Shown: positions 44,299 to 45,895 of the stretch, piece after piece
How the letters are laid out: every line of letters begins with the position of its first letter
How positions within the stretch are numbered: position 1 is the first letter of the stretch
Assembly (NCBI GenBank): GCA_009779405.1
Contig: WREI01000001.1
Coordinates: 15,013-79,012, forward strand
Origin: Clostridiales bacterium
Lineage (GTDB): Bacteria; Bacillota; Clostridia; Christensenellales; CAG-138
Reading direction: 5' to 3'
Length of the DNA stretch: 64,000 nucleotides
Translations under genes and position numbers: made by a program
Notes under the pieces: generated by a model
Told to the model about the DNA's origin: nothing
Seen by the model: the letters and a program-made list of their open reading frames with translations, nothing else
Database searches by the model: none

Positions 44299-45084
44299 CT
44301 ACGTCTCCCCTTTCGGTAGGATTCGGACGTTGTTGAAAAAATCTCTCACTGTTTGAATCGACACATAAGGAAGGGCTTCCTCAGATAATAATGGTATCCC
44401 CAGAACGAACCATTGAAGCAAAACCGTGCTCTCGGGAGTATCAATCACGCACTTCATTAGCAAGAGACTTTCTGTTTCCACGATGAATATGATCGCAGGA
44501 CAGCCGTCTATGCTTGTGTGTTCAGGCAATAACGCAGATTTGACGGACAGTAAATCAAGCCATTCCTCATCACTCGTGTTCTCAATACCGTTGAGAAGTG
44601 CTTTCGTTAGATCGCTGTCGGTTTCATCATAAATATAAGATTTCATGATTTCCGAAATCGCAATCTCTATACGGCCTTCCGGAAAGGTCCAAGTTGATGA
44701 TATTGCTAGACCGGGCTTTTCGGCGGAAACGGGACCATTCCAACAACCAAGCCCATCTGGCAGTGTGTACATGCAATATGCATTTTTATAGTATACGTCG
44801 ATGGAAGAAATTGTTTTGTTATATCCATTGTAAAACCCCAAATCATCTACAGTTCTAATCGAATCTCCCGCCGCTTTAGCCAAATCACGGAGTCCAATCG
44901 GTTCTATCCATGGTATAGGTGTTGCGGTTGGTTCGGGCGTAGGCTCTTCGGTCGGCACGGCTGTGGGCTCCGCCGTGGCCTCGGCGGGCGGGGCGGTGTT
45001 GGTCTGTGCTTCCTTGGGCGTATCCGCGCAGGCGGCGAGGGTTAGGAGCAGGAGGGCGAGGGTGAGAGCTAAGAACTTTTTCAT
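44299..45084 (-). CDS. Surface lipoprotein (hypothetical), candidate phase-variable gene
   Basis: MKKFLALTLALLLLTLAAC lipobox, Pro/Thr/Glu-rich linker, then a lower-GC globular domain. Confidence 0.65.
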   Translation of the reverse strand: MKKFLALTLALLLLTLAACADTPKEAQTNTAPPAEATAEPTAVPTEEPTPEPTATPIPWIEPIGLRDLAKAAGDSIRTVDDLGFYNGYNKTISSIDVYYKNAYCMYTLPDGLGCWNGPVSAEKPGLAISSTWTFPEGRIEIAISEIMKSYIYDETDSDLTKALLNGIENTSDEEWLDLLSVKSALLPEHTSIDGCPAIIFIVETESLLLMKCVIDTPESTVLLQWFVLGIPLLSEEALPYVSIQTVRDFFNNVRILPKGET

Positions 45085-45121
45085 TTTCCGATGCCTTCTT
45101 TCTTCTATTTACGTTCATATG

Positions 45122-45151
45122 AACTATCAGAAGGTGTAGGTTCTGATAGTT
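45122..45151. repeat. Putative serine-recombinase crossover site A (30-bp palindrome)
   Basis: AACTATCAGAA-GGTGTAGG-TTCTGATAGTT. Confidence 0.6.
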
Positions 45152-45213
45152 GTCTTTTCGGCGAGGTTTTTAATTGAATTGGCGGATATTTTTCCAAGAA
45201 TTATAGAACTTGC

Positions 45214-45243
45214 TTGACAAGAAATGCGATTTAGGTGTATATT
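45214..45243 (+). promoter_or_regulatory. Consensus-like sigma-70 promoter inside the putative invertible segment, currently pointing away from the lipoprotein gene
   Basis: TTGACA (45214-19), 18 nt spacer ending in GTG, TATATT (45238-43). Confidence 0.55.
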
Positions 45244-45257
45244 TTACGGGAATCATC

Positions 45258-45287
45258 CACTATCATAAGGTACACCTTTTGATAGTT
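45258..45287. repeat. Putative serine-recombinase crossover site B (30-bp near-palindrome, inverted relative to site A)
   Basis: CACTATCATAAGGTACACCTTTTGATAGTT. Its reverse complement matches site A at 25/30, including the central GT. Confidence 0.6.
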
Positions 45288-45895
45288 CAATGTTCCTCTT
45301 TCTCCGCTCTATATTCCGACAGGCGCCTGTAAAATGTGGCTTCCTTTTGGCCCGTACGCGATAACAATTCCGGCAGGGGCAGCATGCCCCGCTCCCAGAG
45401 CTTCACCAGATCGGCGAAGTCTTCGGGGGGCTTTTGGATAGGGCGGCCCAGATGCACGCCGCGCAGGCGGGCCGCCGCGATGCCCTCAGCCTGGCGTTTG
45501 CGTATGCTTTCCCGCTCGTTTTGCGCCACGAAGGAGAGCAGCTGCAAGGTCAGGTCGGCAATCAGCGTGCCCGTCAGGCTCTTTTCGCGGCGCGTGTCCA
45601 GGGTATCCATGTCCAGCACGCAGATGTCCACGCCCATCTCCTTGGTGAGGGTGCGCCACTGGCTTTGAATTTCCTCGTAGTTGCGGCCAAGGCGGTCAAT
45701 GCTTGGGACGACCAGCAGGTCGCCGGGGAGGAGCTTTTTCACCAGCTTTTTGTACTGCGGGCGGTCGAAGTCTTTGCCGCTTTGCCTGTCGCTGTAGATT
45801 TGGGCGGGCGGAATTTGGAGCTGCCGCAGGGCGTGGAGTTGGCGGGCTTCGTTCTGGTCGGCGCTGCTGACGCGGATGTAGGCGTAGGTGTTCAT
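45287..45895 (-). CDS. Small serine recombinase (resolvase/invertase family)
   Basis: [19 protein letters not shown] (catalytic Ser), SIDRLGRN, C-terminal HTH. 202 aa. Confidence 0.9.

Follow-up and report, generated by a model that had tools for sequence, protein, structure and literature searches.

A predicted promoter-inversion switch with a dedicated Sin-like serine recombinase upstream of a lipoprotein gene in a Clostridiales bacterium

Promoter inversion as a means of phase variation has been studied extensively in Bacteroides, enterobacteria and Clostridioides difficile, but scarcely in the Clostridia prevailing in many gut communities. Here we analysed a 64,000-nt stretch of DNA from a Clostridiales bacterium (assembly GCA_009779405.1, contig WREI01000001.1, positions 15,013 to 79,012; from here: the window). 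It contains a gene for a small serine recombinase, two inverted 30-bp sites enclosing a promoter, and a lipoprotein gene. Sequence comparisons indicate that this locus is very probably, at roughly 85%, a self-contained phase-variation switch, in which inversion of the promoter would turn the lipoprotein gene ON and OFF and which was sequenced in the OFF orientation.

Among the closest described systems, Mpi of Bacteroides fragilis is a serine-type master invertase (PMC5903667). Like the window system, it is a small serine recombinase that inverts short promoter segments between inverted repeats and thereby phase-varies surface structures. However, Mpi is one global enzyme serving many distant sites, whereas in the family of loci to which the window belongs a dedicated recombinase is encoded directly upstream of each switch. 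Moreover, the site sequences differ, and the hosts are Bacteroidota in the case of Mpi but Bacillota or Synergistota in the window family. The segments inverted by Mpi are short and promoter-bearing, measuring a few hundred bp or less.

The Hin/hix, Gin/gix, Cin and Pin systems share with the window locus the dimer-bound inverted palindromic sites, the crossover at a central dinucleotide and an outcome of ON/OFF or alternative expression. Hin/Gin-type segments are ~1–3 kb long, the hin gene lies inside its segment, and a Fis-bound enhancer is required. In contrast, the predicted segment of the window has only 136 bp, the recombinase gene lies outside of it, and the protein is closer to Sin than to Gin. 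No enhancer is evident here, though no search able to show one was made; the hosts belong to phyla in which Fis would not be expected. Instead of Fis, the recombinases Sin (Tn552/pI9789) and beta (pSM19035) employ a DNA-bending protein (HU/Hbsu/IHF), and beta is capable of inversion as well as resolution. Their res or six regions combine a crossover site with an accessory site of different architecture and serve resolution, whereas in the window two equivalent inverted sites flank a promoter, and natural inversion was observed in relatives of this locus.

The fimS element of E. coli with FimB/FimE and the RecV switches cwpV, flgB and cmrRST of C. difficile are intergenic invertible elements of 150–310 bp that control surface structures (PMC5903667). 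These elements depend on tyrosine recombinases, with a chemistry and site structure different from those of the window system. In functional terms, the window locus would be an inverton of the Mpi/Hin kind, set apart by its Sin-clade enzyme, by the dedicated upstream recombinase with a site abutting the stop codon, by the short phase-locked loop, and by the lack of an evident enhancer. Full-text literature searches returned catalogues of invertons as well as work on Mpi, RecV and Fim, and no description of this recombinase-site family; the window and family site sequences are not in the supplementary text of the hCom2 inverton paper either. The Clostridia-dominated inverton group 125 of that paper could overlap with this family, members of which may well be listed anonymously in inverton catalogues.

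The main features of the locus, with positions given for the window, are:

45122–45151, no strand: site A, the distal crossover site, AACTATCAGAAGGTGTAGGTTCTGATAGTT; centre GT on the plus strand at 45136–45137
45258–45287, no strand: site B, the proximal crossover site, CACTATCATAAGGTACACCTTTTGATAGTT; 14-bp inverted arms, centre AC on the plus strand at 45272–45273
45136–45273, no strand: predicted invertible segment from dinucleotide to dinucleotide; 136 bp centre to centre, ~13 helical turns
45122–45137 joined to the reverse complement of 45258–45271: predicted flipped junction, AACTATCAGAAGGT-GT-ACCTTATGATAGTG
45214–45243, plus strand: predicted sigma-A/sigma-70-type promoter, TTGACA-N18-TATATT, matching the consensus at 11/12 positions
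45287–45895, minus strand: small serine recombinase gene, 202 aa, an open reading frame (ORF) with PF00239; not part of the invertible segment, co-directional with the lipoprotein gene
44299–45084, minus strand: target lipoprotein gene, 261 aa, an ORF with signal peptide MKKFLALTLALLLLTLAAC and lipobox LAAC (Cys19)
45094–45098, minus strand: Shine-Dalgarno sequence GAAGG of the lipoprotein gene

Sites A and B are imperfect 30-bp palindromes, each matching its own reverse complement at 24/30 positions. Site A is identical to the reverse complement of site B at 25/30 positions, with 15/16 in the outer arms, and a repeat search returned an inverted repeat of 31 nt with 87% complementarity at this place. 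Because the centres GT and AC are reverse-complementary, the two sites stand in inverted orientation with matching overhangs. The core of 106 bp between them is A+T-rich. The recombinase stop codon occupies positions 45287–45289 and is therefore overlapped by site B by 1 nt.

The arm pattern, searched with up to 3 mismatches, occurs within the 64 kb only at sites A and B, with 0.38 matches expected. A position weight matrix built from the sites of the related loci described below, for which background hits of at least 14 bits amount to 0.013 per kb, gave 35.2 bits for site B and 24.1 bits for site A, and the next-best position in the window reached 3.9. The rarity of the arm pattern and these scores place both sites beyond chance. 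Extra site copies, the sign of a global invertase or a shufflon, were not found by either scan within the 64-kb window. The inner arm of site A carries an AGG/CCT variant beside the centre, which recurs in family members L080, L031, L050, L103 and L169 (L-numbers denote the loci collected, P-numbers the recombinase or lipoprotein proteins of those loci). As a lead only, the half-site core TATCAAAA may resemble the half-site TTATCAAAAACC of hix in the Hin system, both being equally far from the centre, and the central GGTACACC of the window and family sites may resemble Sin site I. An Rfam search of positions 43000–47000 matched no family.

The promoter between the sites is the only strong match of a consensus scan in the region 43900–46200. 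In the window it faces the recombinase gene from its 3′ end, in antisense, and 14 nt separate the end of its −10 element from site B. Reflection of the segment at the axis given by the site centres (45204.5) moves the −10 element to 45166–45171 on the minus strand, from where a leader of ~75 nt would reach the ATG at 45084; the lipoprotein gene starts 37 nt beyond site A. The initial annotation of this DNA had put forward the coordinates, palindromy, overall match and outer-arm match of the two sites, the 1-nt overlap of site B with the stop codon, the promoter with its antisense direction, the position of the −10 element and the leader length after inversion, and a lower GC content in the globular part of the lipoprotein. 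All of these were reproduced when recomputed, the last with a GC content of 42–45% compared to 55–65% in the flanks.

Recombinase-based scans of genome contigs and of metagenome contigs yielded 80 loci each, at least 160 in all, with recombinases 59–70% identical; a protein search with the recombinase gave at least 8000 candidates, all with E ≤ 1e-20. The hosts are mostly Clostridia (Oscillospiraceae, Lachnospiraceae, Acutalibacteraceae) and Synergistaceae, and many of the loci stem from gut samples of termites, rabbits, ruminants and humans. According to the weight matrix, 97 loci, corresponding to 93 unique site pairs, have two sites arranged as in the window. The proximal site lies at the recombinase stop codon, with an offset of ~0 to +10 nt, and the distal site follows 96–288 bp downstream, mostly 126–190. 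Proximal and distal centres are reverse complements of each other in 92/93 unique pairs, which fall into nine dinucleotide classes (GT/AC 49, AC/GT 24, AT/AT 6, CT/AG 5, AG/CT 3, AA/TT 2, TT/AA 1, GG/CC 1, GC/GC 1). The sole exception is L116, where the scan paired a third, weaker site; the partner at +140 gives AT/AT. None of the unique family pairs is a direct-orientation pair with a non-palindromic centre. Serine recombination requires that, once the strands are exchanged, the 2-nt overhangs can base-pair. The complementarity of the centres across all nine classes therefore identifies the sites as crossover partners in inverted orientation.

A sigma-A-type promoter inside the segment could be called in 67 of 91 loci. 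Its −10 element ends 12–17 nt from one site, at 14–15 nt in 55 of the 67, and a TG extension is present in 44 of them. In 57 of these loci, as in the window, the promoter is directed against the recombinase gene from its 3′ end; in the other 10 it points through the distal site to the downstream gene. This bias may reflect an orientation-dependent control of recombinase expression. The A+T content averages 69% in the family cores and 51% in the recombinase genes.

The centre-to-centre spacings cluster at 126–127, 135–140, 144–148, 155–159, 165–170, 176–179, 185–190 and 205–209 bp. Their Rayleigh statistic peaks at a period of 10.1–10.3 bp (R = 0.72), a value reached by none of 5000 jittered nulls, and stays at R = 0.69 without the main mode. 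For a period of 10.5 bp, the phase is shifted by −0.17 bp, and 85% of the 92 unique spacings are within 2 bp of a whole multiple, with 48% expected. The mode of 13 turns (135–139 bp) is the spacing of the window itself. As the spacings are whole multiples of the helical repeat, the two sites lie on the same face of the helix, 12–20 turns apart. Such phasing is expected where the dimers bound to the two sites have to make contact over a small loop. A small phased loop would in turn call for DNA bending, for which HU, by analogy with Sin and beta recombinase, would be the obvious candidate.

Inversion of this segment was found in several relatives of the window locus. The recombinase P0101 is 69% identical to that of the window, and the same protein occurs on contigs from many samples. 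In L188–L191 and L194 the promoter points toward a sigma factor gene, and in L192 the segment is reversed. When L188 was inverted in silico between its site centres (149 bp), the product matched L192 across the whole switch (0 mismatches) and differed from it at just 2 other positions over 1714 nt. L193 and 8 similar contigs fold back on themselves past the distal centre, and L195 ends 20 nt after the stop codon, at the crossover centre where the two orientations diverge. In assembly graphs, both structures are signatures of two orientations occurring in one sample. A second case comes from the human gut, where L155 and L156 have flanks that are 97–98% identical and a 189-bp segment that is inverted at 98% identity, with the site centres as breakpoints. 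Here, between +2 and +260 past the stop codon, the distal site is part of a 42-bp tandem repeat, present twice in L155 and three times in L156. The inversion joins the proximal site to a non-adjacent distal copy, so that nested alternative inversions are possible at this locus. In the rabbit Lachnospiraceae metagenome-assembled genomes with L060 and L069 the core is inverted; the recombinase region is 86–87% identical, and the downstream flank is collinear with 93–97% identity. L027/L146 and L060/L162 are weaker cases. P0095, with 8 places, and P0048, with 10, each showed a single orientation; among the proteins present on multiple contigs, only P0101 showed both.

The recombinase matches the Pfam family PF00239 (Resolvase) over residues 4–147 (E = 4.6e-28). 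Its motif YIRVSS aligns with YARVST of gamma-delta resolvase, which puts Ser10 at the position of the nucleophile; with this motif, the Pfam domain and an uninterrupted ORF the enzyme looks intact. Among solved structures, Sin resolvase is the nearest match (2r0q; E = 6.9e-23, 84.5 bits), followed by gamma-delta and Tn3 resolvases and Gin invertase at E-values of ~1e-14 (Gin 2.5e-14, ~56 bits). The alignment with Tn3 resolvase is colinear (residues 2–200 vs 2–187) and would thus cover the C-terminal DNA-binding region. Among the NCBIfam models, the protein scores well under the cutoffs of the Mpi master invertases (NF009949; 37.6 bits, cutoff 272) and of the IS607-family serine transposases, which carry an N-terminal MerR-like helix-turn-helix (NF033518; 28.7 bits, cutoff 110, with the catalytic domain alone matching), and it also stays far under the cutoff of XisF.

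The following course of events would be consistent with these data, the chemistry of cleavage and exchange being that established for small serine recombinases. A dimer of the 202-aa recombinase would bind each 30-bp site, and the two dimers would synapse across the DNA loop of ~13 helical turns. All four strands would then be cut at the central GT/AC, subunit rotation would swap the half-sites, and religation would leave the 136-bp segment inverted. In the sequenced orientation, transcription would run in antisense into the recombinase gene, with the lipoprotein gene OFF; in the inverted orientation it would pass through site A into the lipoprotein gene with the ~75-nt leader, corresponding to the ON state. 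Antisense transcription across the recombinase gene might, as an idea, also damp recombinase expression and so stabilise the OFF state. The expression of fimE depends on the orientation of its switch and provides a precedent.

Several observations weigh against a working ON/OFF switch in the window. The promoter has an 18-nt spacer and lacks a TG extension, and its activity is a prediction. No terminator was found between the recombinase and lipoprotein genes, and some lipoprotein expression by read-through is therefore possible in the OFF state. No Pfam helix-turn-helix model matches residues 146–202 of the recombinase and, as judged by the structure matches, the enzyme is nearer to Sin resolvase than to the Hin/Gin invertases, a caveat on its reading as an invertase. 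Exact-protein look-ups identified contigs with an identical recombinase or lipoprotein in four independent samples of the window organism (ERZ27257304, Ga0123354, SRR5215144 and SRR10512951), all in the window (OFF) orientation, and a degenerate pattern for both junction states had no match in metagenome contigs. The four-sample result argues only weakly against flipping because consensus assemblies show the majority state, and an OFF consensus is the norm, as 57/67 family loci were assembled in the window orientation, flipping families included. The window copy would flip if it behaves like its family.

The four assemblies in one orientation have nevertheless to be considered together with the weaker score and non-consensus inner arm of site A (24.1 compared to 35.2 bits for site B), since both would fit a fossil switch: a copy inherited from an active family that no longer inverts and is locked OFF, with the lipoprotein made by read-through or not at all. 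That modules of this type can decay is illustrated by L171 (1–1504) and L172 (1–1294), which are allelic to positions 43574–45204 of the window and represent a related strain, found in ERZ27257304, which is also the sample of the window's contig, and in Ga0123353. They are 88–91% identical to the window at the nucleotide level at the uvrA end and 92% from the middle of the core through site A, signal peptide and linker. Their lipoprotein globular domain is only 43% identical to that of the window, and the promoter half of the core, with everything beyond, is replaced by unrelated DNA. This looks like a hot spot at which an allele was replaced, or like a switch that has decayed; the replacement pattern implies that the locus is evolutionarily plastic and that a decayed copy is possible. 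For the window itself, however, the recombinase ORF is intact with a conserved catalytic motif, the central dinucleotides of the sites still match, the inner-arm variant is found in other members with the full layout, and the prevalence of one orientation extends to families that do flip. We consider a fossil switch unlikely. A role of the sites as subsites of a res, at which a Sin-like resolvase would resolve dimers or cointegrates and invert nothing, is hardly credible: although the closest solved homologue is Sin resolvase and the sites adjoin the recombinase gene, the two sites are equivalent, each an inverted repeat for one dimer, and all unique pairs of the family (92/92) have reverse-complementary centres. 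They lie downstream and not upstream of the gene, 12–20 helical turns apart with a promoter between them, in a chromosomal context (uvrA and a metallo-β-lactamase (MBL)-fold gene) free of transposase or plasmid genes, and exactly this segment is found inverted in relatives. A multi-subsite res was also the alternative that the initial annotation had set against its own proposal.

The remaining rival involves three plus-strand genes located past the recombinase gene, a region that also contains a tentative promoter of that gene:

46056–46085, minus strand: tentative recombinase-gene promoter, TTGTCA-N18-TATTAT, 10/12, from the consensus scan alone
from 46067, plus strand: MBL-fold gene
from 47113, plus strand: energy-coupling factor (ECF) S-component gene
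from 47629, plus strand: folC

The three plus-strand genes are co-directional with the window promoter and separated from it by just the 609-bp antisense recombinase gene, so the present orientation might drive them and the switch might work both ways. Such a transcript would, however, have to cross ~820 nt, and housekeeping genes such as folC are improbable targets of phase variation. Furthermore, the arrangement is not conserved, as the gene upstream of the recombinase is co-directional in 18 and divergent in 19 family loci in the window orientation. A two-way switch therefore appears very unlikely. The ON/OFF promoter inversion by a serine recombinase, with the window in the OFF state, had been proposed in the initial annotation. 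It gains support from the family centres, the constant promoter position and the flipped relatives, and the flipped form was not seen in the window organism itself. The same annotation had suggested looking for this recombinase-site-promoter architecture in other genomes, where 92 unique loci keep the layout.

Beyond the single locus, these loci could form a distinct and portable minimal class of serine invertases: Sin-clade, free of an enhancer, with a phase-locked loop of 12–20 turns and a promoter that acts as an antisense brake and builds in an OFF bias. It would have reached both Clostridia and Synergistaceae, preceding genes for surface proteins and sigma factors as well as TnpB-like genes, conjugative elements included. 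We put this wider proposal forward tentatively and consider it somewhat doubtful in its entirety. The module, present in at least 160 loci of two phyla, follows three rules, namely a site at the stop codon, a partner whole helical turns away, and matching centres. With these rules switches can be annotated from the sequence alone, and surface proteins, lipoproteins and regulators that vary within clonal gut populations can be pinpointed. The short phase-locked loop offers a natural system for serine recombinase synapsis without a Fis enhancer, and the recombinase together with the 136-bp cassette is a possible genetic memory element for Gram-positive anaerobes.

The genes behind the family switches were assessed for 83 downstream ORFs. 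Signal-peptide-like N-termini were found in 41/83 and a lipobox in 7. The commonest Pfam families were BspA-type leucine-rich repeats, SLH, Cu_amine_oxidN1 and Listeria-Bacteroides repeats, followed by cohesin, SHIRT, fn3 and CpsB. As these families are typical of the cell surface, the switches are predicted to control mostly surface or secreted proteins. Other downstream genes encode regulators (sigma factors) or TnpB-like proteins. The P0101 and P0095 loci (L188–L195 and L083–L090) lie in a conjugative element with a TraG/VirD4 coupling protein upstream, and their switch faces a gene for a sigma-70-family factor followed by a gene for a DUF4367 protein. Thus, a conjugative element appears to phase-vary its own regulator. 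A TnpB/Cas12f-like protein (PF07282 TNB domain, E = 1e-8 to 2e-10) is encoded behind the switch in L060 (4839–6296), L069 and L162 (3418–4707).

The lipoprotein of the window consists of a signal peptide, a Pro/Thr/Glu-rich linker and the low-GC globular domain. It has no Pfam family, and NCBIfam gives just a weak N-terminal lipoprotein-signal match. It is a near-orphan with two real homologues, at 43% and 40% identity. The latter, P0123 (L173/L174), is also encoded behind a family switch, with centres AG/CT, a different site subtype and a promoter facing the recombinase as in the window. An AlphaFold model from a shallow alignment was poor (mean predicted local distance difference test (pLDDT) score 56.7), and its fold matches to PsbP/DcrB/LpqN/EagT6-like proteins were weak, all with E > 1e-3 and template modelling (TM) scores ≤ 0.31 on the query, a hint at most. 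The protein is an exported lipoprotein, and nothing further is concluded about its role.

Such switches seem to be recurrent assembly breakpoints, and the module accounts for the repeated assembly breaks at these loci. The genome scaffolds with L014, L040 and L070 have runs of N exactly between both sites, and L151 adds a further contig that folds back. The proximal site is followed by a contig end less than 200 bp away in at least 12 cases, and many family proteins are known only from contigs of 1–2 kb. The end of the L090 contig, 44 bp past the stop codon, had been considered as an inversion branch point and was rejected since the break is off the predicted position of divergence.

Unusual arrangements were seen at three loci. 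In L145 a second recombinase gene, convergent with the first, has its 3′ end directly next to the single site (region +11 to +164, counted from the stop codon), and in L124 and L125 two recombinase-like copies lie close together. These may be paired modules or assembly chimeras.

In the window, finally, uvrA and the lipoprotein gene converge, and the intergenic DNA that separates them contains two copies of a GC-rich, hairpin-forming repeat at 44073–44093 (GGGGCGCGATAAATCGCGCCC) and 44141–44163 (AGGGCGCGATAAAATCGCACCCC), which could be terminators or a repetitive extragenic palindromic (REP)-like element.

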